DNA of 32,000 nt, from the NCBI RefSeq assembly GCF_000020025.1, contig NC_010631.1, positions 90,001 through 122,000 on the forward strand, written 5' to 3'. Positions 1,776 to 32,000 of the stretch are shown one piece after another. The stretch comes from Nostoc punctiforme PCC 73102 (GTDB lineage Bacteria > Cyanobacteriota > Cyanobacteriia > Cyanobacteriales > Nostocaceae). The notes below the pieces were generated by a model that saw only the letters and a list, made by a program, of their open reading frames with translations, searched no databases and had not been told where the DNA came from. A program made the translations under genes and the position numbers. Numbering within the stretch: the stretch's first letter is position 1; every line of letters starts with the position of its first letter.

Positions 1776-1808
1776 GGCTATGACTGAGTAGGGAAGATGA
1801 ACCTGATT

Positions 1809-1843
1809 GTATATATCTCCCACAGGAGGAAGGTTATGTAAAT
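1809..1843 (-). promoter_or_regulatory. Copy A of the bipartite upstream motif (ATTTACATAACCTTCCTCCTGTGGGAGATATATAC on the minus strand)
   Basis: It lies about 33 nt upstream of the minus-strand TPR-CHAT start. It shares TT(G/A)CATA, a 14-15 nt spacer and (G)AGAGATATATA with the copies at 3254, 3468, 20958, 27825 and 28551. Confidence 0.45.
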
Positions 1844-4574: not shown

Positions 4575-4654
4575 AAACTGCAAGTACTAAGCAACTTAAT
4601 CACTTAGATTCGTTGAGATAATCAAATATCTTCGGTGTAATTTTACTCAAAAAA

Positions 4655-7600: not shown

Positions 7601-8005
7601 TCAACTTGGTGTCATGGGGCTCCTGGAATTGCTCTAGGGAGGTTGGGGAGTTTATCAATTGATCGTTCAGAGCAAATTCTGACTGATATTGAAGTAGCCC
7701 TAAAAACTACTCAAAACACTGCCTTACAAACTATCGACCATCTCTGCTGTGGTAACTTAGGACGATGTGAAGTCATGCTAGTAGCTGCACAAAAGCTTCA
7801 CAATCCTGACTGGTATCAAGCTGCTCAACAGTTAGCAGCCATAGCAGTAGCACGAGCCACACGAAAAGGAAGGTATGAGTTGTTTGGTGACTTACCTAAT
7901 TTTGTATACAATCCCTCTTTGTTCCAGGGGGCTGCGGGAATCGGATATCAATTACTACGACTAGCTTATCCAGAAGAACTGCCCTCAGTTCTGCTTTGGG
8001 AATAA
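4655..8005 (+). CDS. lanM: Class II lanthipeptide synthetase LanM (ProcM-like, CCG zinc-ligand type), 1116 aa
   Basis: The N-terminal kinase-like dehydratase region contains GGTDCHNENLIACGENLVLVDMETV. The C-terminal LanC-like cyclase has the motifs SHGAAGIAYAL, WCHGAPGIALG and HLCCGNLGRCE. The size is typical of LanM. Confidence 0.92.
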   Translation: MEEREMINNEFKTTSTQVKVVQIASKATFLFERLINNNLSLNVTHFNEKEADKRIVDWCKVIAKGDLEVFHKRLEWSNWNIETIRDLFGTEPIFDSQNLPNWVKTLSDIIHILSESNIQKISPNASEPENPYPFEEILLALVAVARQKLLNCLGFDSLSPDTLPLKILSEAAYLNLEKALLQKLFNLSAKALEFEFSISRSFGKNFLSQFIKNTKNVHSTELYKTFIQKSLADGLLGFFQKYPLLARFIVTTIDFWVEATKEFLERLDADLGEIQQKIHPLANTENYQAFDTVIEIKSAISDSHNQNRSVIALTFASGRKLVYKPKNLGLEVAFCQFLEWCNQELTLGQNHPSLNLKVLQVINRGDYGWVEYIEQKPCEDEAAAQRFYIRAGMLLCLLYVLGGTDCHNENLIACGENLVLVDMETVMQHEAKLMGVSLDQSATSLATNQLFDSVLRTGLLPMWEFAANDSIACDFSGLGSVEVQPVPIPMPVWKFINTDDMHQGYEKLDRPLEANIALLNGMPLSPKNYINELVIGFEQMYCFLMRQKEVLLAANSPLNVFHAQKVRFIFRPTRVYGMLLGQVMTPEFLQHGLDWSIQVDVLSRSFLTNGDKPLAWQILLEELKAISQLDIPYFSGLVDGDTLPLGEEKAIVEYFKTSCLSQVRSRLQKLNENDLAQQLSIIQLAFYAKEARILQTNPSSSISQEAEYDSALVLTSAELLEQAQEIASEIQNRAICGADDSLTWISLTYVLSAERFQLMPLGYSFYDGNCGIAVFLAALARVTGKTLYRDLALRAIQPLQNYLQTSDTKTDLDTALNLGIGGATGLGSIIYSFVKISQFLEVPQLCADVQRFANLITPTAISADRKFDIIGGAAGAILGLLALAQEQPMVLKQAIACGQHLLKYCNEVFGKTSNLKGLIGFSHGAAGIAYALLRLYAVTQDTDYLDAARMAIAYENALFYPSVGNWREITPVYDPASLPVFWSTWCHGAPGIALGRLGSLSIDRSEQILTDIEVALKTTQNTALQTIDHLCCGNLGRCEVMLVAAQKLHNPDWYQAAQQLAAIAVARATRKGRYELFGDLPNFVYNPSLFQGAAGIGYQLLRLAYPEELPSVLLWE

Positions 8006-8316
8006 GGCTGTCACAAAAGTAACAAATCTGAGAAAGAAAGGCAGAAGTTCGAGGGCAGAAGGCAAAAGGTTAGGAGTAACAATTAAAACTTTAGTTCTGG
8101 GTCTAAAGCCAGTTTAGATAAATAATTATACCGAGACTGCTTGCAGCAAGGTATAAAACGTCCTTGTTACAATCCCACTCTTTTAAGGGTGGGTTGCCTT
8201 CTGCCTTTTGAAAACAATTTACATACTGAAGCTACTGATAATACAAATTTGTCGGTAGCTTACTCAATTTTGAATTTTTAAACTGATAGCAATTTTAGAA
8301 ATAAACCTTGTAAAGA

Positions 8317-8409
8317 CGCAAAATTTTGCGGATATATTTTTTAAATTTTAATTTGTATAAATAAAAAATATCAAAGTAAATGTGATTACTCAACAAATAA
8401 TATGTGATT
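8317..8409 (+). promoter_or_regulatory. Candidate operator region upstream of the precursor gene: a 14-bp perfect palindrome and two direct repeats
   Basis: The palindrome is CGCAAAATTTTGCG (8317-8330). ATGTGATT occurs at 8380-8387 and 8402-8409, 22 bp apart, in the AT-rich lanM-lanA spacer 130-220 nt upstream of the lanA ATG. Confidence 0.25.
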
Positions 8410-8535
8410 GTTATAGATATTTTTAGCGAATAACATAATAAGTGTCAGTGCAAGAGACTAAATAGAAATACTAAATATAAAAAGTCTTTTGTACTGCAAT
8501 GCTAATCAAAACTTCATCAATAGGAAAAAATAGTC

Positions 8536-17961: not shown

Positions 17962-19422
17962 ATGTCAGGCGATACTGCTGTTGATGGTTTAGTTCAAATA
18001 CTTATGGGTGTGGCATCACGATATTGGGAACTAGTGAAAATTGATGGGGCGGGACGGCGACAGGTTCGGGAAATTAGTGCAGCTAAGGCATTTTTTGTAG
18101 ATGTGTTCCCAGCGATCACCTCCAGTGGAGGGAACGGCATCGTAGATAATACAGATCGTCATCATGTCCCAGATGCAGAAATTCAACTCCAACTGCTGCA
18201 ACTATCGCGGGATGCACCTGCTGATAGATGTTTGTTAGCACAACGTTGTCTATTGTGTTTTATATCTTGGCAAATTGAGCAAGTTTGCTTACAATTGGCA
18301 GCCAATTTTGGGAGGGTTCACGGTTTCAGTTGTGCTGATTTGCTGCCTTACGTCCTAGATGATGATGGCAAGCTACAACCGAATAGCACTTATCAATCTC
18401 TTTCTCAAAAGATTTTGCAGAGTTTTAACCCACAACAAAGCAGTCTCACAACCTGGACAACTACCAGAGTCAAACACGATGCTGCACTCAATCAATTTTT
18501 GCTGGAGTGTGGAGTTTATATGGTGAGTGACTGGGCAATTCTTAATGATACTCGACCTCAACAGCTAGAGCGCATTTTCCGAGAATTTTACGCCTTAACA
18601 CCTCCAGAAATTCAACAAGCGCAACAGCTTTTAGGAAGCTACCATGCTATTTATCGGACAGCGCGTCTGCAACAGCGATCGCTCTCCATTGGGGGGAAAT
18701 GTACTACACCGACAACTCAACAACTACAACAAATCGCCACTCTCCTCCAAAGTCAAACTAGTCAAACTCTCAAGAGTGAGACTGTGATGACACAACTGCA
18801 AAAACTCGCAACTCAACTAAGAGAATACCGGATTCATGTCCGGGGTGGGTCTTTACCGACAAAATCTCTAGATACTATTACTGGTGATGAGTATACTGAC
18901 ACTACCAAAGCGTTAGATAATGAAGATGAACAAGCAGAGTTTTTGCAATTATATCGCCCCCAATTTCTGGCTTGTTTAGAACAAGCATTGGCTATAGTGA
19001 CTCAATCACGGGTAAATAGATTACAACGGAAAAAGGGTGAAAAAGCCAAAAAGTTTTTGCAAGCACTCAAGTTATTTCACTGTCAAAATTTACGCATGAC
19101 AGAAATTGCTGACAGTATGGGATTACGCGCCCAAGATGCAGTAACTCGTTTGTTAAAACTAAAAGAATTTCGTGCTGATGTCAGACAACAGCTTTTATTA
19201 TTGTTATGCGAGCGCGTTTTGGATTTGGCAAAAAACTACTCTCATCCAGACAGGCTGATAACTTTAGAACAGCAAATTAAACTTGCTCTTGACGAACAAA
19301 TTACTCAGGTTATAAAAGAAGCAGGAAATCAATCTCAAACAGCAAAAATAAACACAATAGAAAATGGTCTGTTTAGTGAAAGACTCTGCCGCTATCTCGA
19401 TTCGCTTAATGAGGAAATATGA
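17962..19422 (+). CDS. Hypothetical 486-aa protein with a C-terminal sigma-70 region-4-like HTH (putative divergent sigma factor or DNA-binding protein)
   Basis: The segment FLQALKLFHCQNLRMTEIADSMGLRAQDAVTRLLKLKEFRADVRQQL resembles a region 4.2 HTH. The rest of the protein could not be assigned by eye. The stop codon overlaps the next start (ATGA). Confidence 0.4.
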   Translation: MSGDTAVDGLVQILMGVASRYWELVKIDGAGRRQVREISAAKAFFVDVFPAITSSGGNGIVDNTDRHHVPDAEIQLQLLQLSRDAPADRCLLAQRCLLCFISWQIEQVCLQLAANFGRVHGFSCADLLPYVLDDDGKLQPNSTYQSLSQKILQSFNPQQSSLTTWTTTRVKHDAALNQFLLECGVYMVSDWAILNDTRPQQLERIFREFYALTPPEIQQAQQLLGSYHAIYRTARLQQRSLSIGGKCTTPTTQQLQQIATLLQSQTSQTLKSETVMTQLQKLATQLREYRIHVRGGSLPTKSLDTITGDEYTDTTKALDNEDEQAEFLQLYRPQFLACLEQALAIVTQSRVNRLQRKKGEKAKKFLQALKLFHCQNLRMTEIADSMGLRAQDAVTRLLKLKEFRADVRQQLLLLLCERVLDLAKNYSHPDRLITLEQQIKLALDEQITQVIKEAGNQSQTAKINTIENGLFSERLCRYLDSLNEEI

Positions 19423-20765
19423 CTAATTTATCCAAAAGTACTCCGCAGATGCGGCTAGATTTTGAATCTTTACCAACAGCCACCATTACTCTCTCTGCCG
19501 ATCAAATTACTCAAGCAGTAGAACTCAGTAGTAAAATCAAAAATTCGTCTCAGCAGTGGCAGACTTATATTCATGCTTTGGCGTTATGCGCTTTTGAAGA
19601 ATGGTTAGCATTACGGGTAAATTCTCTGACAATTAACCGGGAAAGATGTACAACTTTGCAGCCAGCACTTGCGAAAGCGATCGTGGCTGTGGCGAATTTA
19701 CAGGTAGGTAAATTTAAAATTTGTTTAATTACCACTGGTAGCCTGACTGATGAGCAAATTTATTTACCGCAAGCAGTTGTAGATTTACCAGAATATATTC
19801 CTCATTTTTATGTGTGGGTGGAAGTTTTAGAAGAAGAAGATGCAGCACTTATTTCGGGATTTTTATCCTATCAGCAGTTAAGAGAACACCAGACAACAGT
19901 TAATTTACAATCATCAGCAGATTGGAATTATCAAATACCAGTGAGTTGGTTTGAGAAGAATCCAGACCGCTTATTGTTATACTTGCGTTGTCTAGAACCA
20001 GAGACAATTGCTTTACCAGCTAAAAGCGAAAATACCCAGCTTTTATCGACAATCCAAAATGAATTACTAGCATTATTACCCCAATTGCGATCACCTGGAA
20101 CAGAACTGTGGCAAGTATTAACTTGGGAACAGGGAAAGGTGGTATTGACTCATCCAGAGTTGCTGAATTGGATTGATAATTCGCAACAGCAAACACACAC
20201 GTCTTCAACTAGTGACAGCTTAAAGGATTTACTGAAATTGTTGACAGAGCCAGCGCTGAATGTGGGACGTTGGTTGTGGGATGAATTAGATGAATTAGCA
20301 GAGGAATTTTCTTGGCGATTATTACCGAGTTTGACACCAGCAGCAGCGATGCGAAGTCCTATAGAAGAGTTTCCAGCCATTATTCACCAACTTCAGCACC
20401 GAGGTTTGGAAATTCCGGCTGTGGCGCGGGGTGCGTATCAAGATTTTCTTTTAACAGCAATTCCTCTGCGGTTGTATGCTGTGACTTGGCATTTGTTAGC
20501 GGAATCAGAACCGAATTTATGGACATTATTGTTAGTTCTTGGTACAGCTTCTCACACAGCTTTACCTGTTTATTTAAAACTGCGGGTGAGTGACCAAACT
20601 GGGGTTTTAGTAGAACAGGAGATAAATCCACAACAGCAAGATTCTTATTTATTTACGCGTGTGGTGGGGAATTGGGATGAGAAGTTTTTGGTGAGTGTAA
20701 GTTTAACAGATGGTGTTGAGGTGAACTTACCTCCATTTACATTTTCTCCCAGGCGGTTGGTTTAG
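19419..20765 (+). CDS. DUF1822-like cyanobacterial protein (448 aa), translationally coupled to the sigma-like gene
   Basis: The pattern WQTYIHALALCAFEEWL...LQVGKFKICLITTGS...VDLPEYIPHFYVWVEVLEEE...ISGFLSYQQL is as I recall for DUF1822-family proteins. There is a 4-nt ATGA overlap with the upstream gene. Confidence 0.5.
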   Translation: MTNLSKSTPQMRLDFESLPTATITLSADQITQAVELSSKIKNSSQQWQTYIHALALCAFEEWLALRVNSLTINRERCTTLQPALAKAIVAVANLQVGKFKICLITTGSLTDEQIYLPQAVVDLPEYIPHFYVWVEVLEEEDAALISGFLSYQQLREHQTTVNLQSSADWNYQIPVSWFEKNPDRLLLYLRCLEPETIALPAKSENTQLLSTIQNELLALLPQLRSPGTELWQVLTWEQGKVVLTHPELLNWIDNSQQQTHTSSTSDSLKDLLKLLTEPALNVGRWLWDELDELAEEFSWRLLPSLTPAAAMRSPIEEFPAIIHQLQHRGLEIPAVARGAYQDFLLTAIPLRLYAVTWHLLAESEPNLWTLLLVLGTASHTALPVYLKLRVSDQTGVLVEQEINPQQQDSYLFTRVVGNWDEKFLVSVSLTDGVEVNLPPFTFSPRRLV

Positions 20766-20957
20766 TTTCTCCGGTTACATTTTTGGTAACAAATATCTCG
20801 TGTATAAGTATTAATCTCTGCATGACGCTGATGCTTTTCATTTTGCCCAGGCTCAAAATTATACTCATCTATATACATTTGATGATAAATTTGTGAACTG
20901 CTCCCAGGGGCTAACTACCTGTGAAGTGACAATACCTTGAATTAAGTGATACAAAAA

Positions 20958-20995
20958 TGTTTGCATAACCTCCCCAAGCGTGAGAGATATAGATA
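20958..20995 (+). promoter_or_regulatory. Copy C of the bipartite upstream motif: TGTTTGCATAACCTCCCCAAGCGTGAGAGATATAGATA
   Basis: It lies about 44 nt upstream of the GTG start of the TPR-CHAT gene at 21040. Confidence 0.45.
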
Positions 20996-21039
20996 ATTAG
21001 CTAGTAAATATTCTCACCTCTGTTGGAGGACTGCTTCTC

Positions 21040-23172
21040 GTGCATTACCGTCTTAAATCCCTCTCTCTTACTACTTTGATGCTTTCCCTGTCTTTACCTG
21101 TAGGAGTTGCGGAATCAAAGCCAAGGGGAAATATGCAAACTACCCTAACTGCACAGGCGCAAACAACACAAGAACGCAAGGATGAAGCATTGCGGCTGAA
21201 CCGATTAGGTGTTCAACAATTCAATAAAGGCCAGTTTCAAGAAGCTTTAAAAACTTTTGAGCAAGCTTTAGCGATTGTCAAACAAATCGGTAACACAGCA
21301 GATGAAGGCACTACTCTCAACAATATTGGGGAAATTTACCGCAATTTGGGAGAGTATGCCAAAGCTTTAGACTTCTATCAGCAAGCTTTAGCGATTTACA
21401 AACAAATTGGTGACACAGCAGGTGAAGGCACTACTCTCAACAATATTGGGTTAGTTTACGACAGCCAGGGAGAGTATGCCAAAGCTTTAGACTTCTATCA
21501 GCGAGTTTTAGCAATTGTCAAACAAACTGGTAACACAGCCGTTGAAGGCAAAATTCTCAACAATATTGGGTCAGTTTATGTCAATCAGGGAGAGTATGCC
21601 AAAGCTTTAGACTTCTATCAGCAATCTTTAGCGATTTACAAACAAATTGGTAACACAGCAACTGAAGGCACTACTCTCAACAATATTGGGGAAGTTTACC
21701 GTAATCAGGGAGAGTATGCCAAGGCTTTAGGCTTCTATCAGCAAGCTTTAGCGATTTACAAACAAATTGGTGGCACAGTAGGTAAAGGGACTGCTCTCAA
21801 CAATATTGGGTTCACTTACAACAGTTTGGCTAGGTATGCAGATGCAGAAAAAACCTTATTTGCAGCTATTGAGGTTTGGGAATCTCTGCGAACACGGGAA
21901 TTACCTGATGACCAAAAAATATCAATTTTTGAGAAGCAAGCTTCCACTTACCATTTGCTACAACGAGCTCTGATTACCCAAAATAAAACTAACACAGCAT
22001 TAGAAATATCTGAACGAAGTCGAGCTAGAGCATTTATTGAGTTATTAGCCTCCAAAATATCTGGAAATATCGACAATCAACAAGCTGTCAAACCACCTAA
22101 TATTGAGCAAGTTAAACAAATTGCCAAAGCACAAAATACCACACTTGTTGAATATTCAGCTAATGAATCAAAACTTTATATTTGGGTCGTCAAACCAACT
22201 GGTAAAATAGCTTTTAAACAAGTAGACCTCAATTCATTAAATACACCACTTGCACAACTAGTAAACAAAAGCCGTCTATCTATTGGTGCTGGGGGTCGGG
22301 GTATTAAGGTAGAACCTAAAAATGAATATACTAAAAAACAGACTTTACAGAAATTACATGAGGTATTGATTGAACCCATCGCATCTCTTCTCCCTACTAA
22401 TCCAGATGAACACGTTATCTTCATCCCCCATGAATCGCTGTTTTTAGTTCCTTTCGTAGCACTGCAAGATAAAGATGGCAAATACCTGATCGAGAAACAC
22501 ACTATCTTAACAGCACCAGCAATTCAAGTTTTAGATTTGACACATCAGCAACGCCAAAAGGTGACGGGTAAAGATGTGTTAGTTATGGGCAATCCTATCA
22601 TGCCAAAAGTAGGCATTCCACCTGTGCAACTTAACCCACTGTTGGGTGCCCAAAAGGAAGCTGTGACAGTTGCAAGTTTATTCAAAACTAAAGCTATCAC
22701 TGGTAAAGATGCAACAAAAGCAGCTTTCAAACAAAAATTATCATCTGCGAAGATTATTCATTTAGCAACGCATGGATTGTTAGATGACGCTGATAAGAGT
22801 ATACCAAGTGCGATCGCTCTTGCACCCACCAGCAACGATGACGGTTTACTCACCCCTGCGGAAATTGTCGATTTAAAAATCAACGCTGAATTAGTGGTGT
22901 TAAGCGCTTGCGACACAGGTAGAGGGACAATTACTGGTGATGGCGTAATTGGATTATCTCGTTCTTTGATTACGGCTGGCGCGTCTAGTGTGATTGTCTC
23001 ATTGTGGGCGGTTCCTGATTCACCCACATCAGAATTAATGACAGAGTTCTATCAGCAATGGCAGAAAAATCCTGATAAGGCGGCGGCGTTACGCAATGCA
23101 ATGCTGATTACTATGAAGAAGCATCCTCAGCCTCGTGATTGGGCGGCTTTTACATTGATTGGCGAGTCTTAA
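21040..23172 (+). CDS. Secreted TPR-repeat / CHAT-domain (caspase-like Cys protease) protein, 710 aa
   Basis: The signal peptide is MHYRLKSLSLTTLMLSLSLPVGVAES. Five 40-aa TPR units follow. The CHAT region carries a His (IIHLATHGLLDD) and a Cys (VVLSACDTGRG) dyad, and the C-terminus reads WAAFTLIGES. Confidence 0.9.
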   Translation: MHYRLKSLSLTTLMLSLSLPVGVAESKPRGNMQTTLTAQAQTTQERKDEALRLNRLGVQQFNKGQFQEALKTFEQALAIVKQIGNTADEGTTLNNIGEIYRNLGEYAKALDFYQQALAIYKQIGDTAGEGTTLNNIGLVYDSQGEYAKALDFYQRVLAIVKQTGNTAVEGKILNNIGSVYVNQGEYAKALDFYQQSLAIYKQIGNTATEGTTLNNIGEVYRNQGEYAKALGFYQQALAIYKQIGGTVGKGTALNNIGFTYNSLARYADAEKTLFAAIEVWESLRTRELPDDQKISIFEKQASTYHLLQRALITQNKTNTALEISERSRARAFIELLASKISGNIDNQQAVKPPNIEQVKQIAKAQNTTLVEYSANESKLYIWVVKPTGKIAFKQVDLNSLNTPLAQLVNKSRLSIGAGGRGIKVEPKNEYTKKQTLQKLHEVLIEPIASLLPTNPDEHVIFIPHESLFLVPFVALQDKDGKYLIEKHTILTAPAIQVLDLTHQQRQKVTGKDVLVMGNPIMPKVGIPPVQLNPLLGAQKEAVTVASLFKTKAITGKDATKAAFKQKLSSAKIIHLATHGLLDDADKSIPSAIALAPTSNDDGLLTPAEIVDLKINAELVVLSACDTGRGTITGDGVIGLSRSLITAGASSVIVSLWAVPDSPTSELMTEFYQQWQKNPDKAAALRNAMLITMKKHPQPRDWAAFTLIGES
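21229..21828 (+). repeat. Five tandem 120-bp TPR coding units with very high nucleotide identity
   Basis: GGAGAGTATGCCAAAGCTTTAGACTTCTATCAGCAAGCTTTAGCGATTTACAAACAAATTGGT..ACACAGCA..TGAAGGCACTACTCTCAACAATATTGGG recurs nearly verbatim. Confidence 0.85.
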
Positions 23173-23247
23173 GGAAAAGTTTATGCAGAGACGCAAAGAG
23201 GGAACGGAAAGAGTTTAAGGTGTATTTTATAAGTGTTTATTGGCGGT

Positions 23248-24429
23248 CAAAAGTGTTGAATGTTAAGAAAAATCCGATAAAAACAGCCCAAAATATGTTA
23301 AATTTTGGGCGGAAGATTAAAGTATATCTATTTAATAGTGATTATAAATTCATTTCCCAAGATTGTCAAAGATATCTTGAGAGGACTGCCAAAAAACGAT
23401 TATCCAGTATTGAACAGTCGTCTGTTCTTTGAGTGCTGGTTATCTTATGCTATGGATAACAGCTTAACAAGTATGCGAGATTTATTTAACAGATTAAACA
23501 ACACAGGATTTCCGGTAGATATTTCTACTTTCTCTAAAGCAAACTTACATCGAAGTCAAAAACCTTTTCAAGAAATTTACCAAAAATTAAATGAATTAGT
23601 ACAGAAGAAAGTTCAAAAAAAGTTACATGATAAATATGCAATTTGTCCAATAGATTCAACAATTATTACTCTCACAAGTAAATTGTTATGGGTACTAGGA
23701 CACCATCAAGTAAAACTTTTCAGTTCTCTAAATTTAGCTACTGGAAGTCCATCAGATAACTTCATAAACTTTGGACATGACCATGACTATAAATTTGGTT
23801 GTAAAATGATGTCTAGTCTACCAAATAATGCTGTTGGTGTAATGGATAGAGGTTTTGCTGGATTAAAATTTATCCAAGAATTAGTCCAAGAAAACAAATA
23901 CTTTGTTTTGCGGGTAAAAAACAATTGGAAGTTAGAATTTGAGGAGCAAACTGGATTAATTAAAGTTGGTGCATCTAATGATGCTCAAGCCTATAGAGTG
24001 ATTAATTTTTGTGATTTAGAAACGAAAACTGAGTTTCGATTAGTAACCAATTTACCAACATTAGGAGAGGCTGCCGTTAGTGATTATGAAATCAGGGATA
24101 TTTATCGATTGCGTTGGGGAGTTGAATTGTTGTGGAAGTTTTTGAAAATGCACTTAAAACTTGACAAGTTAATTACTAAAAATGTTAATGGTATCACCAT
24201 ACAAATTTACGTTACTTTAATAGCTTATCTAATTTTACAGATATTATCTGTACCACAACAATGGGGACATACGCTATTAGATAAATTCCGCTATTTACAA
24301 TCTTGTATGTGTCAGAAAATAAGTTATGTTCATTGGTTTGAAGAGATGATGTCATGTTGACTATTTTAGGCTTTTTAGAGTTAGTGTAACTAGATATGTA
24401 AACTTTTGTATCAGCATTCAACATTTCTG
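23248..24429 (+). mobile_element. IS4-family insertion sequence (1182 bp) with 15-bp TIRs and a 9-bp target-site duplication
   Basis: The left end is CAAAAGTGTTGAATG (23248-23262). The reverse complement of the right end (24415-24429) is CAGAAATGTTGAATG, a 13/15 match. ATTGGCGGT is directly repeated at 23239-23247 and 24430-24438. Confidence 0.85.
23305..24360 (+). CDS. IS4-family DDE transposase
   Basis: The motifs are CPIDSTIITL, VMDRGFAGLKFIQEL and the YREK signature YRLRWGVELLWKFLK. The 23305 start is a TTG. The in-frame GTG at 23338, giving (M)IINSFPKIVKDIL, is a more likely start. Confidence 0.85.
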   Translation: MGGRLKYIYLIVIINSFPKIVKDILRGLPKNDYPVLNSRLFFECWLSYAMDNSLTSMRDLFNRLNNTGFPVDISTFSKANLHRSQKPFQEIYQKLNELVQKKVQKKLHDKYAICPIDSTIITLTSKLLWVLGHHQVKLFSSLNLATGSPSDNFINFGHDHDYKFGCKMMSSLPNNAVGVMDRGFAGLKFIQELVQENKYFVLRVKNNWKLEFEEQTGLIKVGASNDAQAYRVINFCDLETKTEFRLVTNLPTLGEAAVSDYEIRDIYRLRWGVELLWKFLKMHLKLDKLITKNVNGITIQIYVTLIAYLILQILSVPQQWGHTLLDKFRYLQSCMCQKISYVHWFEEMMSC

Positions 24430-24447
24430 ATTGGCGGTTAATTAATT

Positions 24448-26865
24448 ATGACTGCTTTTATTTTTAATTTAAAAGTTCAACAATTCGATCAACTTTGTGC
24501 ATTTGAACTATCTTGGGGTAAGGGTCAGCAACTTGGTGTAACACTTGCCTATCCTAATGATCTGGATTTCAAATACCAAGAATGGCAGCGAATTTATCTA
24601 CGTTTTTATAACACAAAATTGCGAAGTAGAGTAGAAGAAATTGGCAGTTTTACTGCACCGCCTGTTGATTGGCACTTGCAACTAGTCCAGGCAGAAGCAC
24701 AACTTTTATCGGAATTTCATCACTGGTTACGGAGTGCTGAATTACATGAAATTCGTGCAACAATTGCTCAAGCAACCAGAAAAGATGAGCATCCTAATGT
24801 TGATCTTTTTCTCACTTGCAATCCTTTAGATTTAGCACGATTACCTTGGGAAGCTTGGGAAATTGGTACGGAATTTAGTTCATCATCTAGTAAAATTAGG
24901 ATTGTTCGTACACCAATAAATAGGCGAGAAACTGTTTCTTCTCCTCATGATCGCCGTTCTGGTAAAACCAGAATTTTAGTGATTCTTGGTGATGAAACTG
25001 GTTTAGACTTTCAAGCAGAAAAGCAGGCTATGATTTTTTTAAAATCAGTGGCAAAAGTAGAATTTATTGGTTGGCAACCTCAAGAAAGTATCCCGGAATT
25101 AAAAACTAAGATTGTCCAGGCGATCGCCTCTGAATCAGGATGGGATATTTTATTATTTGCTGGTCATAGTAATGAAACTAATTTGACTGGGGGAGAAATA
25201 GCGATCGCTCCCAATACAGCTTTATCAATTAGTGAAATAGCACAGCCATTAATTATTGCTAAACAGAGAGGATTGCAGTTTGCTATTTTCAATTCTTGTA
25301 ATGGTTTAAGCATTGCTAATAAACTGATTGATTTAGGTTTAAGTCAAGTAGCCGTCATGCGCGAACCTATCCACAATCAAGTGGCTGGCGAATTTTTATT
25401 AGAATTTATCAAAGCTTTAGCCCAATATCAAGATGTCCATGAATCGATGATTACAGCTGCTCAACATCTGAAACTAGAAAACTCTCTTACTTATCCTAGT
25501 GCTTATTTAATTCCTTCTTTATTTTGCCATCCAGAAGCAACTTTGTTTCGCTTTCAACCCTCTGGAATCAAGCCATTTATCCAATATTGGCGACTTAGCC
25601 GCAAAGAAGCGATCGCCCTCTCCATTTTATTATTAATTAGTTTAATTTTACCTGTACAAACTTTCTTATTACAGTGGCGTGTATGGGTACAGGCTATCTA
25701 TCGTGACACAACAAATCAATCTATCACCTCAACAAGTCCGCCACCAGTATTATTAGTACAAATTGATGAGGATTCTATTATTAAAGCTAAAATATCTGAT
25801 CCTAAACCAATTGATTATAAGTATTTAGCAAGTTTAATTGACCGACTCTCAGCCGATAAAGCTAAAGTCATCGGTATTGATTATCTACTCTCTAGACATC
25901 AACCGCAAAGCGATCGCATCCTCGCTAAGTCTATTCAAGCTGCTGTTAGTTCTCCCAATCATACATTGTTTGTGTTTGCAGCCACCGGGAATCAGAATAA
26001 GAAATGGTTACAACCATTGCCGGAAATTGCTAACTTTAATTGGAGTTTATCAGGAGACATTAAGTTTTATCCTTGGTATATATCATTATTACCTCATGAT
26101 GATTTTCAAACTCAGCCTTGGTATTTTTCTAATTTATTAGTTTTGGGACAGCAATTACAACAAATTTCTGATGCACCACAGCCAAAATTAGATAGTCAAA
26201 CAGATTATTTTCAACAGATGGGAGATGTTTCTCCAAGGAATTTAAAATCTCATCGAATTATTTTACAATCACCGCGATCGCGTCTGCAATTAATAACAGC
26301 TTTGAGTTATCAACTATGGCAAATGTGGCTGCATCCAATCGCTGATTTTTCAATTCCACCCAATCAGATATACCATACTATCCCAGCTTGGAAAGTCCTA
26401 GAAAATCAAACTCCACCTCAAAACTTACAGCAGCAAGTTGTGATTATTATTCCTGGTGGATATGACGAAGCTGGCATTTCCCAAGATGGAGAAGATAATT
26501 TCGCAGATGCAAATTTACCACCAGCTATTAAATACTGGCAGCCTAACACTAATTTATTCACAGGTGGTGAGTATCATGCCTATATGATACATCATTTACT
26601 GAATCAGAGATTGGTTGTACCGATTCCTGATTTCTGGGTAACTGGCATAGCTCTATTATTAGGAAAAATACTGTATCTACAACAAAAAAATAGAAAATAT
26701 CGTTGGCAATGGTTGTTGCTGATGACAATATTCACAGGGATTTATGGAATAATCAGTTTGCAGTTATACATTTCAACAACGGCAATACTTTTGCCTTGTT
26801 TCTTACCATCAATCGGCTTGTGGGTTTACTTTGTCCCTAATCTTTTATCAAGTAAAAAATCATGA
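24448..26865 (+). CDS. CHAT-domain protease fused to a transmembrane CHASE2 sensor domain (805 aa)
   Basis: The N-terminal CHAT region has RILVILGDETGLD, His LLFAGHSNETN and Cys FAIFNSCNGLSIA. A TM helix follows (AIALSILLLISLILPVQTFLL). The CHASE2-like periplasmic region reads VLLVQIDEDSI...YLASLIDRLSADKAKVIGIDYLL. Three C-terminal TM helices close the protein. Confidence 0.8.
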   Translation: MTAFIFNLKVQQFDQLCAFELSWGKGQQLGVTLAYPNDLDFKYQEWQRIYLRFYNTKLRSRVEEIGSFTAPPVDWHLQLVQAEAQLLSEFHHWLRSAELHEIRATIAQATRKDEHPNVDLFLTCNPLDLARLPWEAWEIGTEFSSSSSKIRIVRTPINRRETVSSPHDRRSGKTRILVILGDETGLDFQAEKQAMIFLKSVAKVEFIGWQPQESIPELKTKIVQAIASESGWDILLFAGHSNETNLTGGEIAIAPNTALSISEIAQPLIIAKQRGLQFAIFNSCNGLSIANKLIDLGLSQVAVMREPIHNQVAGEFLLEFIKALAQYQDVHESMITAAQHLKLENSLTYPSAYLIPSLFCHPEATLFRFQPSGIKPFIQYWRLSRKEAIALSILLLISLILPVQTFLLQWRVWVQAIYRDTTNQSITSTSPPPVLLVQIDEDSIIKAKISDPKPIDYKYLASLIDRLSADKAKVIGIDYLLSRHQPQSDRILAKSIQAAVSSPNHTLFVFAATGNQNKKWLQPLPEIANFNWSLSGDIKFYPWYISLLPHDDFQTQPWYFSNLLVLGQQLQQISDAPQPKLDSQTDYFQQMGDVSPRNLKSHRIILQSPRSRLQLITALSYQLWQMWLHPIADFSIPPNQIYHTIPAWKVLENQTPPQNLQQQVVIIIPGGYDEAGISQDGEDNFADANLPPAIKYWQPNTNLFTGGEYHAYMIHHLLNQRLVVPIPDFWVTGIALLLGKILYLQQKNRKYRWQWLLLMTIFTGIYGIISLQLYISTTAILLPCFLPSIGLWVYFVPNLLSSKKS

Positions 26866-27605
26866 ATAAATTGCTGTTTTATACGTTATCATTATCAGTA
26901 ATAGCTTTGAGTACTGCACCTGTTTTATCAAATCAACCAATACCTACTCAACCAAAGCAACCACAGTCGTTTATATCTTGGATTTCCCAAGCTATCTTTA
27001 AAAAAGAACCGCCGATACAGCCACGCAAAGGTGGTTCTCGCCCGACTGTACGTGATACTAATGATATCTGCATGATTTCTCCAGATGAACCAGAGACTAC
27101 TAGAATTGTTTGGAGCGATCGCCCTTTATTTATTTGGGAAGGTAAGGTAAAAAAAATAGTAGTGCTTAATAAAAATACTGGTAAAAAGTGGACTCAACCA
27201 GTAACTGAGACTCCAAATATTTATACTTACACAGGAGATGAACCACTAGAACCAGGCCAAACCTACGAATGGCGAGTGTTTTTTGAAGATAGTCTGTCTC
27301 AAAAAGAATTGTCTAGTGGTGTTAATTTTCAAGTGATGGAAGCACAACAACGCGATCGCATTACCGCAGACTTACAGAATTTAGAAAAACAACTCAAAGC
27401 CGAAAATAAAGATAACGAAGCGATCGCTCTTGCCAAAGCCAAATATTTTGCCGAAAATCAATTATGGTCAGATGTCTTGCAGCAATTGTATTCTATACAA
27501 ACAACGTCTACTGATTTAGACGCATTTCGTAAAGACATTTCTCGCAAGTTATGTGATCCACCTACGGAAGTTAGCCATAATTCCCCCAAGCGTGAGTCTC
27601 GATAA
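26862..27605 (+). CDS. DUF928-like periplasmic protein (signal peptide), translationally coupled to the CHAT-CHASE2 gene
   Basis: The signal peptide is MNKLLFYTLSLSVIALSTAPVLS. The segment PRKGGSRPTVRD..C, followed by SDRPLFIWEGKVKKIVVL and EPGQTYEWRVF, resembles the DUF928 pattern. There is an ATGA start/stop overlap at 26862-26865. Confidence 0.55.
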   Translation: MNKLLFYTLSLSVIALSTAPVLSNQPIPTQPKQPQSFISWISQAIFKKEPPIQPRKGGSRPTVRDTNDICMISPDEPETTRIVWSDRPLFIWEGKVKKIVVLNKNTGKKWTQPVTETPNIYTYTGDEPLEPGQTYEWRVFFEDSLSQKELSSGVNFQVMEAQQRDRITADLQNLEKQLKAENKDNEAIALAKAKYFAENQLWSDVLQQLYSIQTTSTDLDAFRKDISRKLCDPPTEVSHNSPKRESR

Positions 27606-27694
27606 TTCTCGTCGTCTCCTAACGATAATTCCTGGGAACGGTACGAGCGTTTGAGTATTGGTAACGACAACTTTTACATTCCTAACGACATTTG

Positions 27695-27754
27695 TAGCGT
27701 CATCACAACTGATAAGCCGATTCTAACAATAGCTTATCAGTTGTGATGACGCTA
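27695..27754 (+). terminator. Perfect 23-bp stem / 14-nt loop hairpin followed by a T-rich tract; likely terminator of the CHAT-CHASE2/DUF928 operon
   Basis: The left arm is TAGCGTCATCACAACTGATAAGC (27695-27717). The right arm is GCTTATCAGTTGTGATGACGCTA (27732-27754). The tract ATTTTATT follows. Confidence 0.65.
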
Positions 27755-27824
27755 ATTTTATTCCATAGATAAACTAGCATTTCCTTTACCTTTATCGAAA
27801 AATTTTTCATCTCTACTAAATTTT

Positions 27825-27862
27825 TTTGCATATCCTCCCAACACCTCAGAGATATATATATG
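27825..27862 (+). promoter_or_regulatory. Copy D of the bipartite upstream motif: TTTGCATATCCTCCCAACACCTCAGAGATATATATATG
   Basis: It lies about 76 nt upstream of the ATG at 27939 of the small TPR gene. Confidence 0.45.
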
Positions 27863-27938
27863 CGTGAACCAACAAGTCTACTTCTGCACAAGACTAGTTA
27901 GAAACTTAGCAAAACTTAGTATCTTAGGAGACATAGCA

Positions 27939-28454
27939 ATGAAGGGTTTGAAATTAGCAGTAGCGATGATTGCATTAGTAACATTGACTCTCACTCCCAA
28001 AGCTGAAGCCAAAAGCTTGTTCCACAATCAACAAACATCAACAGTTACTGCATAACTTCCCAACTCGCAAACTGAAAACAAGAGTGACACTGAAGCTTAC
28101 CTCCAACAAGGAATTGAGCTTTTAGACTCAAAAGACTATCAAGGAGCCATAGATGAATTTAACAAAATCCTGGAGATTGAACCCAAAAATATTTATGCTT
28201 ACGTTGGCAGAGGTGCTGCCAAGATGTACTTAGAACAGTATCAAGCAGCAAAGACAGACTTTGATACAGCCTTAGAAATTACTCCTGATATTTCTTTAGC
28301 CTACTATTTTCGGGGTTTTACCAATTATGCCTTAAAAGACAAACCAGCAGCGATCGCTGATTTACGCAAAGCATCCACACTGTTTAAACAAGAAAACAAA
28401 CTGGATTTAGCTCAAAAAGCGGACAGCGCAGCTAAAGAGATAGAAGCTAGCTAA
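27939..28454 (+). pseudogene. Small signal-peptide TPR protein interrupted by one in-frame TAA (28053-28055)
   Basis: An AGGAG sequence lies 8 nt upstream of the ATG at 27939. The signal peptide is MKGLKLAVAMIALVTLTLTPKAEA. The same frame stays open after the TAA through 28454 and encodes TPR units (YLQQGIELLDSKDYQGAIDEFNKILEIEPKNIYAYVGRGAAKMYLEQYQAAKTDFDTALEITPD...). The ORF-track pieces 27864-28055 and 28224-28454 are in the same frame. Confidence 0.55.
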
Positions 28455-28550
28455 AGCATTGCATAATTTTTATGACTGATGCAACAACCGGGTTTGCAAG
28501 ATATAAGTTTGTGAACCCAGTTTCTTTTTTACTCAAACACAAGCAAAATT

Positions 28551-28584
28551 ATTGCATATCCTCTGAAAACTGAGAGATATATAC
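28551..28584 (+). promoter_or_regulatory. Copy E of the bipartite upstream motif: ATTGCATATCCTCTGAAAACTGAGAGATATATAC
   Basis: It lies about 30 nt upstream of the ATG at 28615. Confidence 0.45.
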
Positions 28585-28614
28585 CACTGAGTTAGTCTGC
28601 TGAAGAATTCGTCT

Positions 28615-31600
28615 ATGCACCACCGTCTGAAATACCTTACCGTTGCTACAGTCTTATTTCCCCTTGTCACCTTGTCACCTTGTCTCCCACTCTCCTCTCC
28701 CTTAGTGGTGCAAGCGCAAACGACACAACAGCCTAGTGCTGAAGCTTTGCAATTATTGCAAATTGGTATTCAACAATATAAGAATGGTGCGTTACAAGAA
28801 GCATTACAAACATTTCAAAAATTACTTCCCATTCTCAGGACAAATGGTAACGAAAAGATAGAAGCAATGACTCTTAACGTTATTGGGAGAATTTACGTAA
28901 ATTTAGGATATTATCCCCAAGCTTTGACAGCTTGTCAGCAAGCTTTAGCTCTGGTTAAACAAATTGGAGAAAAGGCAGAAGAAGGTGCTTCTCTTAATAA
29001 TATTGGCAATATTTATAATAGTTGGGGACAGTCTGCCAAAGCTTTAGAGTTTTATCAGCAAGCTTTAACCATTAGCAAACAAATCGATGACAAACTATTA
29101 GAAGGGCTAAGTTTGAACAATATTGGCACAGTTTACTCCAGTTGGGGAGAATATGCCAAAGCCTTGGAATTTTATCAGCAAGCTTTAGTCATTTACAAAC
29201 AAGTTGGCAACAAAATGGAGGAAGCAACAACCTTCAACAATATTGGCAATATTTATAATAGTTGGGGAGAGTATACCAAAGCTTTGGAAGCTTATCAGCA
29301 AGCTTTAGCTATTGTTAAGCAAGCTAGTAACAAAGTAGGGGAAGCTTCAACCCTTAACAATATTGGATTGACTTACAATAGCCAGGGAAATTACAACAAA
29401 GCCTTGGAATTGCATCAGCAAGCTTTAGCTATTCTCCAACAACTTGACAATAAACGGGAAGAAGCAACAACTCTCAGCGCTATTGGATTGGCTTACAACA
29501 AACAAGGCCAATATGTAAAAGCGGTGGAATTTCATCAGCAGGCTTTAACTATTTTCAAACACATCGGGAACAAATGGGGAGAAGCAGCAACTCTCAACAA
29601 TATTGGAGATGTTTACCGTAATTTGGGAGAGTATACCAAAGCTTTAGGATTGTTTCAGCAAGCTTCAGCTATTTTCAAACAAATTGCTGATCAAGCAGGT
29701 GAAGGAACAACTCTCAACAACATTGCCTTTGTTTACAATAATCAAGGACAGTACGCCAAAGCTTTGGCAGCTTATCAGCAAGCTTTAGCTATTCGCAAAC
29801 AAATCAATCAAAAAGCGTTGGTAGGAGAAAGCCTTAATAATATTGGCTCTGTTTACGATAATTTGGGGCAGTCCGATCAAGCATTGAAGTTTTATCAGCA
29901 AGCTTTAGCTATTTTCAAACAAATTGGAAGCAAAGCAGGTGAAGGTAAAAGTTTGAACAACATTGCCTTTATTTATAACAATTCTGAACAGTATGATAAA
30001 GCATTGAAGTTTTATCAAGAATCTTTAACTATTCTCCAACAGATTGGTGACAAAGCAGGCGAAGGCAAAACTTTTCATAATATTGGAGAAGTTTATCAAA
30101 GGCAAAGACAATATATAAAAGCCTTTAAAATTTATCAGGAATCTTTAAGTATTTTTAAACAAATCGGCGATAAAGCAGGTGAAGGCATAACTCTTAATAA
30201 TATTGGTGGGGTTTATTATAACCAGGGAGAGTATGCCAAAGCTTTGGAATTCCATCAGGAAGCTTTAGCAATTGTCAAACAAGTTGGTGATAAAGCGGCA
30301 GAAGGAACATATCTTAATAATATTGGTTCAGCTTACGAGAAATTAGGACAATATGATAATGCTGAAAAAACGCTATTTACCGCAATTGAGATTTGGGAAG
30401 ATTTGCGAAAGAATGGATTAACTGATGCTCATAAAATTTCCATCTTTGAAAAACAAGCCGAAACCTACCGCTTTCTGCAAAAAGCATTAATTGCCCAGAA
30501 TAAAATTAATTCTGCACTAGAAGTAAGCGATCGCGCCAAATCTAGAGCCTTTATTGAGTTACTAGCCTCAAAGCAATTAGAAAAACCAAACCCACTATTA
30601 AATATCAAACCCCTCGCACTCCAGCAAATTAAAAACGTCGCCAAGGTTGAGAATGCAACCCTTGTGCAGTATTCAATTATTGGCAATGAAGCACTCTACA
30701 TTTGGGTAATTAAACCTACAGGTGAAATAGCTTTTGAGCAAGTTGACTTGAAAAAAAGTCTAAATACTTCTCTAGAAAACCTTGTTATTAACAACCGTAA
30801 AACTCTGGGTGTGAGAAGTCGGGGTATTAAAGTGGAACCTAAAAGTGGCGGTAATCAAAAACAGCAGTTACAAAAACTCTATGAAATACTAATCAAACCC
30901 ATCGCCCAATATTTACCAAAAGATTCTAATGCTCGTGTTATCTTCGTTTCTCAAGAATCGTTGTTTCTTGTACCTTTTCCAGCATTGCAAGATGAGCAAG
31001 GCGAGTACTTAATCGATAAACATACTATCCTGACTGTACCTGCCATTCAAGTGTTAGATTTAACCACCAAGCAGAAGCATAACCTTAACAAGTCTGCAAA
31101 AGATGTGCTGGTTATTGGCAATCCTATCATGCCTAAAATTCCCATTACAAATGAACAGTTGTCATCCCTTCCTGGTGCAGAAACAGAAGCAATACAGATT
31201 GCAGATTTATTTAAAACCAAAGCAATTATAGGTAGCAAAGCTACCGAGACAGCCATTGTCCCGAAGATGAGCAAAGCTAGGATAATTCATTTTGCTACCC
31301 ACGGCTTACTTGATGATTTTAAAGGATTCGGTGTGCCTGGTGCGATCGCCTTTGCTCCTAGTAATCAAGACGACGGCTTCCTAACATCAGGCGAAATTCT
31401 CGACATGAAACTCAACGCCGAACTCATTGTCCTTAGTGCTTGCAACACTGGAGGCGGAAATATTACAGGCGATGGTGTTATTGGTTTATCGCGTTCTTTG
31501 ATCACTGCTGGAGTACCCAGCGTCATCGTATCCCTGTGGGATGTGAATGATAATTCCACCGCCTTTTTAATGAGCGAATTTTATGATCATTTCCAGCAAA

Positions 31601-31707
31601 ATCCCGATAAAGCTGTAGCGTTACGCAAAGCAATGCTCACTACCAAAAAGCGATATACAAATCCTCTTTACTGGGCTGCCTTTACCCTCATTGGTGAAGC
31701 AGATTAA
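28615..31707 (+). CDS. Secreted TPR-repeat / CHAT-domain protein, 1030 aa (13 TPR units)
   Basis: The signal peptide is MHHRLKYLTVATVLFPLVTLSPCLPLSSPLVVQAQ. Thirteen 40-aa TPR units follow. The CHAT dyad is His IIHFATHGLLDD and Cys IVLSACNTGGG, and the C-terminus reads WAAFTLIGEAD. Confidence 0.9.
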   Translation: MHHRLKYLTVATVLFPLVTLSPCLPLSSPLVVQAQTTQQPSAEALQLLQIGIQQYKNGALQEALQTFQKLLPILRTNGNEKIEAMTLNVIGRIYVNLGYYPQALTACQQALALVKQIGEKAEEGASLNNIGNIYNSWGQSAKALEFYQQALTISKQIDDKLLEGLSLNNIGTVYSSWGEYAKALEFYQQALVIYKQVGNKMEEATTFNNIGNIYNSWGEYTKALEAYQQALAIVKQASNKVGEASTLNNIGLTYNSQGNYNKALELHQQALAILQQLDNKREEATTLSAIGLAYNKQGQYVKAVEFHQQALTIFKHIGNKWGEAATLNNIGDVYRNLGEYTKALGLFQQASAIFKQIADQAGEGTTLNNIAFVYNNQGQYAKALAAYQQALAIRKQINQKALVGESLNNIGSVYDNLGQSDQALKFYQQALAIFKQIGSKAGEGKSLNNIAFIYNNSEQYDKALKFYQESLTILQQIGDKAGEGKTFHNIGEVYQRQRQYIKAFKIYQESLSIFKQIGDKAGEGITLNNIGGVYYNQGEYAKALEFHQEALAIVKQVGDKAAEGTYLNNIGSAYEKLGQYDNAEKTLFTAIEIWEDLRKNGLTDAHKISIFEKQAETYRFLQKALIAQNKINSALEVSDRAKSRAFIELLASKQLEKPNPLLNIKPLALQQIKNVAKVENATLVQYSIIGNEALYIWVIKPTGEIAFEQVDLKKSLNTSLENLVINNRKTLGVRSRGIKVEPKSGGNQKQQLQKLYEILIKPIAQYLPKDSNARVIFVSQESLFLVPFPALQDEQGEYLIDKHTILTVPAIQVLDLTTKQKHNLNKSAKDVLVIGNPIMPKIPITNEQLSSLPGAETEAIQIADLFKTKAIIGSKATETAIVPKMSKARIIHFATHGLLDDFKGFGVPGAIAFAPSNQDDGFLTSGEILDMKLNAELIVLSACNTGGGNITGDGVIGLSRSLITAGVPSVIVSLWDVNDNSTAFLMSEFYDHFQQNPDKAVALRKAMLTTKKRYTNPLYWAAFTLIGEAD
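28786..30345 (+). repeat. Thirteen tandem 120-bp TPR coding units
   Basis: The units are 40 aa long, with recurring TATCAGCAAGCTTTAGCTATT...AACAATATTGG cores. Confidence 0.85.
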
Positions 31708-31755: not shown

Positions 31756-32000
31756 TTGAAAAAAATTCAGACTTACTTTGTACAATCAATTTGTCTATGT
31801 ATTCTCGCCATTACCTACTTGCCTAATATCAATATTTTGGCAAATAACAAGGTTTTAGCGCAAACCACAAATGCCGATGAACCATCAATTCTAGAAACCC
31901 AAACTTCCACCTCTAACCGATTACAAAAATTACTCATTGAACAGAATAAACCTGAAGCAGCGTTAGAAATTTCCGAACGCAGCCGTAACCGTGCATTAGT
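31756..32000 (+). CDS. CHAT-family protein lacking a TPR array (N-terminal fragment; runs off the window); probable TTG start
   Basis: The frame is open from 31744 to the window end. It reads (TTG)KKIQTYFVQSICLCILAITYLPNINILA (signal-like), then ...NRLQKLLIEQNKPEAALEISERSRNRAL. That segment matches the ..ALEISERSRARAF.. stretch that follows the TPR array in the other CHAT proteins here. Confidence 0.55.
   Translation, partial: MKKIQTYFVQSICLCILAITYLPNINILANNKVLAQTTNADEPSILETQTSTSNRLQKLLIEQNKPEAALEISERSRNRAL

Follow-up and report, generated by a model that had tools for sequence, protein, structure and literature searches.

Canonical CHASE2 receptors consist of a transmembrane (TM) helix, the periplasmic CHASE2 domain and three further TM helices, and carry their outputs, adenylate and diguanylate cyclases or histidine and Ser/Thr kinases, behind the last helix (Zhulin et al. 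2003, as cited in PMC8195603). Here we analyze a gene of Nostoc punctiforme PCC 73102 whose product has the same membrane layout but places its output before TM1: a predicted receptor-protease with an N-terminal CHAT domain. The gene lies in a 32,000-nt stretch of contig NC_010631.1 (positions 90,001 to 122,000; the window, to which all coordinates refer), and its conserved neighborhood suggests that the receptor may control a dedicated transcription factor and a regulon of exported proteases.

The closest described relatives are the EACC2-caspase proteins of Kaur, Iyer, Burroughs & Aravind (2021, eLife, PMC8195603). There, a constant N-terminal alpha+beta domain, EACC2, precedes a caspase domain, behind which the C-terminus is variable and can include CHASE2; genes for a sigma factor of the extracytoplasmic function (ECF) class and for DUF1822 are neighbors, and a stimulus is proposed to activate the caspase and thereby sigma-factor-mediated transcription. 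The Nostoc receptor agrees with this account in its predicted caspase fold, TM helices and CHASE2, in the adjoining DUF1822 gene, in the absence of a TRADD-N gene (as in the 'independent' version of these authors), and in the logic that we propose for it. Its residues 1-112, a conserved alpha+beta domain, fit the published description of EACC2, and a neighboring gene for a weakly sigma-like protein may correspond to the ECF sigma gene. The EACC2 description, as far as the accessible text goes, is brief and computational, and it does not contain the DUF928 coupling, the putative regulon of exported TPR-CHAT, S8 and C14 proteases or the promoter-like motif reported below. This wider circuit may be new.

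In a metacaspase-CHASE2 protein of Trichodesmium erythraeum (Jiang et al. 2010, PMC2853523; PMC3501461), too, a caspase-fold protease at the N-terminus is followed by a single TM helix, CHASE2 and a further three TM helices, and the same topological conclusion, a sensor outside and a protease in the cytoplasm, was drawn for it (Asplund-Samuelsson et al. 2012, PMC3501461). Unlike the Nostoc receptor, whose protease domain scores as CHAT (PF12770) and not as C14, it is classed as Peptidase_C14 (metacaspase/orthocaspase). CHASE2-linked orthocaspases are likewise drawn as membrane receptors in the Fig. 6 model of a 2020 review (PMC7475262). The novelty of design implied by an earlier, sequence-only reading of the window therefore does not hold: the architecture is common in cyanobacteria, where database annotation already records it for hundreds of proteins, and it has been read in the same way in print (PMC3501461, PMC7475262 and PMC8195603).

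Csx29, the protease of the type III-E CRISPR system 'Craspase', shares the CHAT protease fold, is allosterically switched, and is the best structural match of the receptor. In the Craspase papers of 2022, cleavage of Csx30 by Csx29 is said to control an ECF sigma factor, a protease-to-sigma logic that for the receptor is a proposal. Csx29 is a soluble protein with TPR repeats that becomes active when target RNA binds to Cas7-11, whereas the receptor is membrane-embedded, lacks TPR repeats and carries CHASE2; sequence identity between the two is ~12%. DdvA of Myxococcus xanthus, a transmembrane anti-sigma factor with a TPR-CHAT domain that acts with DdvS (PMC11506125), is another structural match, a membrane protein that joins a CHAT domain to the control of a dedicated sigma factor, as is proposed for the receptor. 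Its topology is the opposite one—CHAT sits in the periplasm, and DdvS is bound on the cytoplasmic side by a zinc-binding anti-sigma domain—and it lacks CHASE2 and has an active site described as incomplete (PMC11506125). The Csx29 and DdvA precedents make a protease-to-sigma logic plausible.

Architecture and topology of the receptor

The open reading frame (ORF) at 24448..26865 is as the sequence-only reading described it, with the motifs LLFAGHS and FNSCNG holding His240 and Cys284. Its parts are as follows.

24448..26865, + strand: predicted CHAT-CHASE2 receptor-protease gene, ATG start, 805 aa
24448..24783, + strand: conserved N-terminal alpha+beta domain, aa 1-112 (alignment and AlphaFold2 model)
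24784..25527, + strand: CHAT caspase-fold protease domain, aa 113-360 (Pfam, alignments and Foldseek)
25165-25167, + strand: codon of predicted catalytic His240, within LLFAGHS
25297-25299, + strand: codon of predicted catalytic Cys284, within FNSCNG
25528..25608, + strand: short linker from CHAT to TM1, aa 361-387 (hydropathy and alignment)
25609..25671, + strand: TM1, aa ~388-408, running from inside to outside (hydropathy and AlphaFold2 model)
25672..26616, + strand: CHASE2 sensor domain, predicted periplasmic, aa ~409-723 (Pfam, hydropathy and model)
26617..26847, + strand: TM2 to TM4, aa ~724-743, 755-775 and 779-800 (hydropathy and model)

In Pfam, CHAT (PF12770) matches aa 113-340 weakly, clearing its cut-off of 24 bits with a score of 28.4, and CHASE2 (PF05226) matches aa 407-738 with 65.4 bits, well over the 26.3 required. 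The domain order of the earlier reading, CHAT before TM1 and CHASE2 after it, is borne out. No other Pfam family reaches E<=0.01: there is no match to Peptidase_C14 (PF00656) or to TPR families, and no anti-sigma domain was detected. No Pfam model covers residues 1-112, which alignment and the AlphaFold2 model resolve as a separate conserved domain, a small alpha+beta module of three strands followed by three helices, and neither the receptor nor DUF928 has a named NCBIfam family.

Hydropathy gives one TM helix before CHASE2 and three after it. The protein ends at aa 805 after a basic tail of five residues beyond TM4, which leaves no room for a C-terminal output domain, as the earlier reading had maintained. 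Lysines and arginines are concentrated in three places: just ahead of TM1 (KxxxxxxRxxRK), in the loop between TM2 and TM3 (QQKNRKYRWQ) and in the C-terminal tail (SSKKS). Since this distribution fits the positive-inside rule, the CHAT domain and both termini are predicted to be cytoplasmic and CHASE2 periplasmic; the prediction comes from a hydropathy and charge heuristic and not from a dedicated topology predictor. The linker preceding TM1 is K/R-rich next to the membrane and contains some strongly conserved positions (an HP..LF...P.G motif). An AlphaFold2 model of the whole receptor, built from a 93-sequence alignment, reproduces the layout of domains and TM helices (mean pLDDT 82, pTM 0.60), with low-confidence loops at aa 58-69 and around 160-190. 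A search of the receptor profile against Protein Data Bank (PDB) sequences returned chance-level matches only and thus yielded no CHASE2 structure.

The receptor is 100% identical to an N. punctiforme protein annotated as 'CHASE2 domain-containing protein / putative Chase2 sensor protein'. A word-index search yields at least 1496 homologues at E<=1e-5; almost all of the best 120 are full-length, and for most of them precomputed annotation lists the two Pfam domains. When only the N-terminal 385 aa are searched, they retrieve 266 clusters (50% identity, E<=1e-30), nearly all of proteins of ~800 aa. Full-length conservation in more than 1000 proteins rules out a chance ORF or a mis-annotation. 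With one genome per species, at least 573 loci encode a related protein, and several genomes have more than one copy. The best 80 loci (L001-L080) are cyanobacterial except for one metagenome-assembled genome: L003 (CAZZZY010000128.1), labelled 'uncultured Acetobacteraceae bacterium', has a typical Nostoc-like cluster and 66% identity to the window protein, and its contig is probably mis-binned.

The N-terminal module as a predicted CHAT protease

The weakness of the Pfam CHAT score led us to further tests of the domain. His240 and Cys284 are invariant in an alignment of 20 full-length homologues and in another of 93, and the idea of a pseudo-enzyme was rejected on this ground. In a local profile-profile comparison of modest significance (hhalign; E 0.002, probability 14%) with 112 CHAT domains of the neighboring TPR-CHAT proteins, dyad falls on dyad, FAGHS being aligned with (I)HLATHG and FNSC with LSAC. 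Global hhalign of the receptor N-terminal region against the CHAT domains of TPR-CHAT proteins found nothing, and a single-sequence comparison was weak. The best Foldseek match of the receptor model is Csx29 (8eey_B, E 1.4e-9; entry 8eey contains Csx29 and Csx30), and further matches are a SAVED-CHAT filament (8tl0), separases, DdvA (8rot/8rw5, E ~1e-5), caspase-9 and a metacaspase, all with a Foldseek probability of 1.00.

Conservation is highest in the CHAT domain, where mean column identity is 0.72, compared with 0.33 in the cytoplasmic TM2-3 loop and 0.42 in the C-terminal tail. Because this loop and the tail are short and poorly conserved while CHAT is the best-conserved part, the N-terminal protease is the only plausible output of the receptor on the evidence of these alignments. 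Topology, CHASE2 score and dyad alignment had been named beforehand as the points on which the receptor-protease interpretation could fail; all were computed, none spoke against it, and the N-terminal domain in particular is not predicted to be periplasmic. The architecture, topology, intact dyad and fold of the receptor are thus computational results, and they support a receptor-protease in which the signal would pass from CHASE2 to a presumably active protease.

A stereotyped gene neighborhood

We called ORFs in the best 80 of the at least 573 loci and in the window, and clustered them by BLASTP; the denominators 76 and 67 below are loci with enough flank. The recurrent gene order is a 486-aa protein (here U486), DUF1822, variably a TPR-CHAT protein, the CHAT-CHASE2 receptor, DUF928, then variably a small TPR, a CHAT-only and a TPR-CHAT protein, and finally, again variably, an S8 subtilase or a C14 orthocaspase with DUF4384. 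Pfam identifies the additional families of the cluster as Peptidase_S8, Peptidase_C14 with DUF4384, and TPR. The window shows the full arrangement at 17962-31707.

17962..19422, + strand: U486, a conserved protein of 486 aa, predicted cytoplasmic and all-helical, co-conserved upstream of the receptor
19419..20765, + strand: DUF1822 gene (PF08852, 189.5 bits), product predicted cytoplasmic; start overlaps the U486 stop by 4 nt
21040..23172, + strand: TPR-CHAT protein, 710 aa, signal-peptide-like N-terminus
26862..27605, + strand: DUF928 gene; start overlaps the receptor stop by 4 nt (ATGA, 26862-26865)
27939..28455, + strand: gene for a small exported TPR protein, with an in-frame TAA at 28053-28055 (codon 39)
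28615..31707, + strand: TPR-CHAT protein, 1030 aa, signal-peptide-like N-terminus

DUF928 directly follows the receptor in 60 of 76 loci, mostly with overlaps of -4 or -8 nt, an arrangement that implies translational coupling of the two. Two cysteines and the motifs GGSRP and VWSDRPLF are conserved in the DUF928 protein; its N-terminus resembles a signal peptide, and we propose the protein as a periplasmic partner of the receptor. Upstream of the receptor, DUF1822 is present in 39 of 67 loci and U486 in 36 of 67, the pair frequently overlapping by 4 nt; a DUF1822 profile had no match in the PDB. TPR-CHAT genes occur in 51 and S8 or C14 peptidase genes in 20 of the 81 loci. In the small TPR gene, codon 39 is Gln in the homologue of locus L009, and Nostoc sp. 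HK-01 carries an uninterrupted copy (516 nt); in this N. punctiforme strain the gene is probably a pseudogene.

The cluster divides between two compartments. A simple test for an N-terminal hydrophobic region finds signal-peptide-like N-termini in 57 of 62 DUF928 proteins, 91 of 112 TPR or TPR-CHAT proteins and 9 of 12 S8 subtilases, compared with 0 of 38 DUF1822 and 2 of 37 U486 proteins; a representative C14 protein begins with a twin-arginine-like motif, RRNFLYMASSALASLG. By this division, the receptor would connect a periplasmic set (CHASE2, DUF928 and the exported proteases) with a cytoplasmic one (CHAT, U486 and DUF1822).

Nine loci from a marine subgroup of Oscillatoriales (Okeania and Dapis: L046-L048, L052, L059, L060, L063, L072 and L077) have a different neighborhood, with no DUF928, U486 or DUF1822 gene, and possibly a different function. 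In L046, L047, L052, L060, L063, L072 and L077 the receptor lies downstream of a membrane-anchored protein of the beta-lactamase family (PF13354).

A shared motif upstream of the exported-protease genes

A bipartite motif was first noticed in the window before two genes in the intergenic region between DUF928 and TPR-CHAT, in the form TTGCATA(A/T)CCTC-N9-10-AGAGATATA. It occurs at three places.

20961..20993, + strand: motif TTGCATAACCTC-N10-AGAGATATAGA, 47 nt upstream of the TPR-CHAT gene
27826..27858, + strand: motif, 80 nt before the small TPR gene
28552..28583, + strand: motif, here with a spacer of 9 nt, 32 nt before the second TPR-CHAT gene

The motif can be written as TGCATAACCTC-N~10-GAGAAATATA, or as TGCATA(A/T)CCTC-N~10-GAGA(A/G)ATATA, and its consensus over the loci is an A/T-rich stretch, T-TGCATAACCTC, the spacer and (C/G)AGA(A/G)ATATA. 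A relaxed pattern has 111 matches in 1.4 Mb of loci, compared with 0-3 in each of ten Markov shuffles. When matches are assigned to genes on the sense strand at most 400 nt downstream, they distribute as follows.

TPR and TPR-CHAT genes: 55/156
S8 subtilase genes: 7/15
CHAT-CHASE2 receptor genes: 11/79
U486 genes: 2/34
DUF1822 genes: 2/39
DUF928 genes: 0/63
all other genes: 10/336

In many cyanobacterial genera the motif stands 30-100 nt before genes for exported TPR, TPR-CHAT and S8 proteins, and also before some of the receptor genes. Of 62 loci with DUF928, 43 contain it; of 14 loci in which DUF928 and TPR-CHAT are both missing, 3 do. It looks like a dedicated promoter or operator of an exported-protease regulon; we found no published description of it. 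A generic sigma-70 promoter scan gave no enrichment (24 found, 26.3 expected). Promoter-like matches on the minus strand recur every 120 nt at 21333-21722, inside the first TPR-CHAT gene; these reflect TPR repeats of 40 codons whose DNA is nearly identical, and are not promoters.

As the reader of this motif we infer U486, whose relatives are all named 'hypothetical protein' in the databases. Its AlphaFold2 model (pLDDT 80.6) consists of helices throughout, save for a small hairpin at the N-terminus. The commonest sub-threshold NCBIfam match is TIGR02937 (sigma70-ECF), in 13 of 37 members with a best E of 0.0099, and hhalign lays aa 367-400 on the region 4.2 helix-turn-helix of E. coli RpoE (E 0.013). 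The 'ECF sigma' call of Kaur et al. for the 486-aa protein is thus reproduced at a sub-threshold level only. These faint matches hint that U486 could be a divergent helix-turn-helix protein of sigma-70/ECF type.

Surroundings of the locus

Two further elements touch the receptor unit directly.

23248..24430, + strand: IS4-like insertion sequence with imperfect inverted repeats; DDE_Tnp_1 transposase at 23305-24360
27695..27754, + strand: perfect 23-bp hairpin (TAGCGTCATCACAACTGATAAGC / GCTTATCAGTTGTGATGACGCTA) with a 14-nt loop, followed by ATTTTATT (read directly)

The insertion sequence is flanked by a target duplication of 7-8 bp (TTGGCGGT at 23240-23247 and 24431-24438) and is absent from the syntenic plasmid locus of Nostoc sp. 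HK-01. It separates the receptor from the upstream TPR-CHAT gene and its motif and lies 9-17 nt before the receptor start codon, so expression of the receptor may differ from that in relatives. The hairpin, 90 nt past the DUF928 stop, is by its form probably the terminator of the CHAT-CHASE2/DUF928 unit; a terminator scan missed it because of a limit on loop length.

A class II lanthipeptide cluster lies upstream at 3729-17223. It comprises a receiver-AraC regulator (3729-4574), a LanM with DUF4135 and LANC_like domains (4655-8005), a GNAT acetyltransferase, an HlyD-like protein, a C39-peptidase ABC transporter (11813-14071) and a second ABC transporter (14329-17223). Further members or fragments of the TPR-CHAT cluster run off both ends of the window (1-1823 on the - strand, and 31756-32000), so the protease-rich region extends past it.

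A proposed circuit and its alternatives

We propose that a periplasmic cue would be received by CHASE2, perhaps together with the coupled exported DUF928 protein, and relayed through TM1 and the short linker, through receptor dimerization, or both, to switch on the cytoplasmic CHAT domain. Active CHAT would then act on the U486/DUF1822 pair, be released towards it, or act on itself. A dedicated transcription factor, as the gene neighborhood suggests, would thereby be freed and would drive the exported TPR-CHAT, subtilase and small TPR genes from TGCATAACCTC-N~10-GAGAAATATA promoters. That the receptor is a protease controlling a dedicated transcription factor and an exported-protease regulon is the best supported of the readings considered here, a proposition to which we lend about as much belief as doubt. 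Its most complete form is an envelope-spanning circuit throughout cyanobacteria, in which CHASE2 and DUF928 would monitor the periplasm, CHAT would free a sigma-like U486 from DUF1822, U486 would read the bipartite promoter of the TPR-CHAT/subtilase/orthocaspase regulon, and the protease products or their substrates may feed back on CHASE2; in this fully specified shape it is doubtful.

Several observations weigh against the proposal. The Pfam score of the CHAT domain exceeds its threshold by 4 bits, and the dyad alignment is statistically weak. U486 matches no Pfam family and is not recognizable as a sigma factor, its 486 aa far exceeding the length of ECF sigma factors; its profile has no match among PDB sequences apart from a spurious short glycoside-hydrolase motif, and Foldseek against the PDB returns nothing significant (best E 0.17, with sigma A chains at E 0.57-1.1). 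The motif rarely precedes U486 and DUF1822 genes (2/34 and 2/39), and co-location alone links it to U486. About 40% of loci with enough flank lack U486 and DUF1822 nearby, and the marine Oscillatoriales subgroup lacks DUF928 as well. Our literature search found no experimental study of any family member.

The same protein could instead be a trigger of cell suicide or immunity, in which an envelope or invader signal sensed by CHASE2 would lead CHAT to cleave many proteins or to activate other caspase-like proteases, with programmed death in the filament as the outcome in place of a specific transcriptional response. Kaur et al. count EACC2-caspase proteins with the conflict systems that resemble apoptosis and immunity (PMC8195603), and a proteolytic cascade begun by CHASE2-linked orthocaspases has been proposed (PMC7475262, Fig. 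6). The closest structural matches, Csx29 and SAVED-CHAT, are defense-system proteases; the locus adjoins a lanthipeptide/bacteriocin cluster and is probably plasmid-borne, the longest contig with the identical protein being 354,564 bp and the closest annotated relative being on a plasmid. However, no PADLOC defense family was found for the receptor, DUF928, U486 or DUF1822, generic TPR matches being confined to the TPR-CHAT proteins. The other proteases of the cluster are predicted to be exported and are therefore not in the compartment of the cytoplasmic CHAT domain, and a close link to a predicted helix-turn-helix protein and to an upstream motif held in common speaks for gene regulation. 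Many genomes also have several paralogous copies, a trait commoner among sensors than among suicide modules but not confined to sensors. A death trigger thus appears unlikely.

Self-cleavage, in cis or in trans within a dimer, might release the N-terminal domain or the whole protease module as the signal. 'Autopeptidase activation' is proposed by Kaur et al. (PMC8195603) and trans autoproteolysis in a dimer has been suggested for the structural match DdvA; the conserved positions of the CHAT-TM1 linker and the low-confidence loops of the model at aa 58-69 and ~160-190 would suit such a mechanism. Set against this, no conserved cleavage motif was identified, the linker is short, and CHAT packs near the membrane in the model. 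Self-cleavage as the essential event is quite improbable; it is in any case compatible with control of a transcription factor and does not compete with it. Least probable of all, and hard to credit, is that CHASE2 and the four TM helices are a mere anchor or dimerization scaffold or signal from inside to outside, with the protease answering cytoplasmic cues or the protein aiding the export or maturation of secreted proteases and DUF928. The CHASE2 domain of the receptor has no known ligand, and the translational coupling of the gene to exported DUF928 and its place among genes for exported proteases could reflect a role in assembly or maturation. Yet the periplasmic domain is long (~315 aa), well conserved (26% of its columns are at least 90% identical) and scores as a genuine CHASE2 sensor, and the exported partners carry ordinary signal-peptide-like N-termini, so no dedicated exporter is needed.

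Implications

The architecture of the receptor will not surprise specialists, and the value of the analysis lies in a testable regulon hypothesis. To our knowledge, no CHASE2-coupled protease has been characterized in any organism. Since the family is large and its neighborhood stereotyped, the proposed circuit offers concrete and cheap tests in genetically tractable Nostoc. If a caspase-like protease were proven to be the direct output of a bacterial transmembrane sensor, regulated proteolysis would join kinases, cyclases and c-di-GMP enzymes among the known outputs of receptors, and the bacterial CHAT/caspase world of Craspase, DdvA and separase would be linked to envelope sensing in multicellular cyanobacteria.

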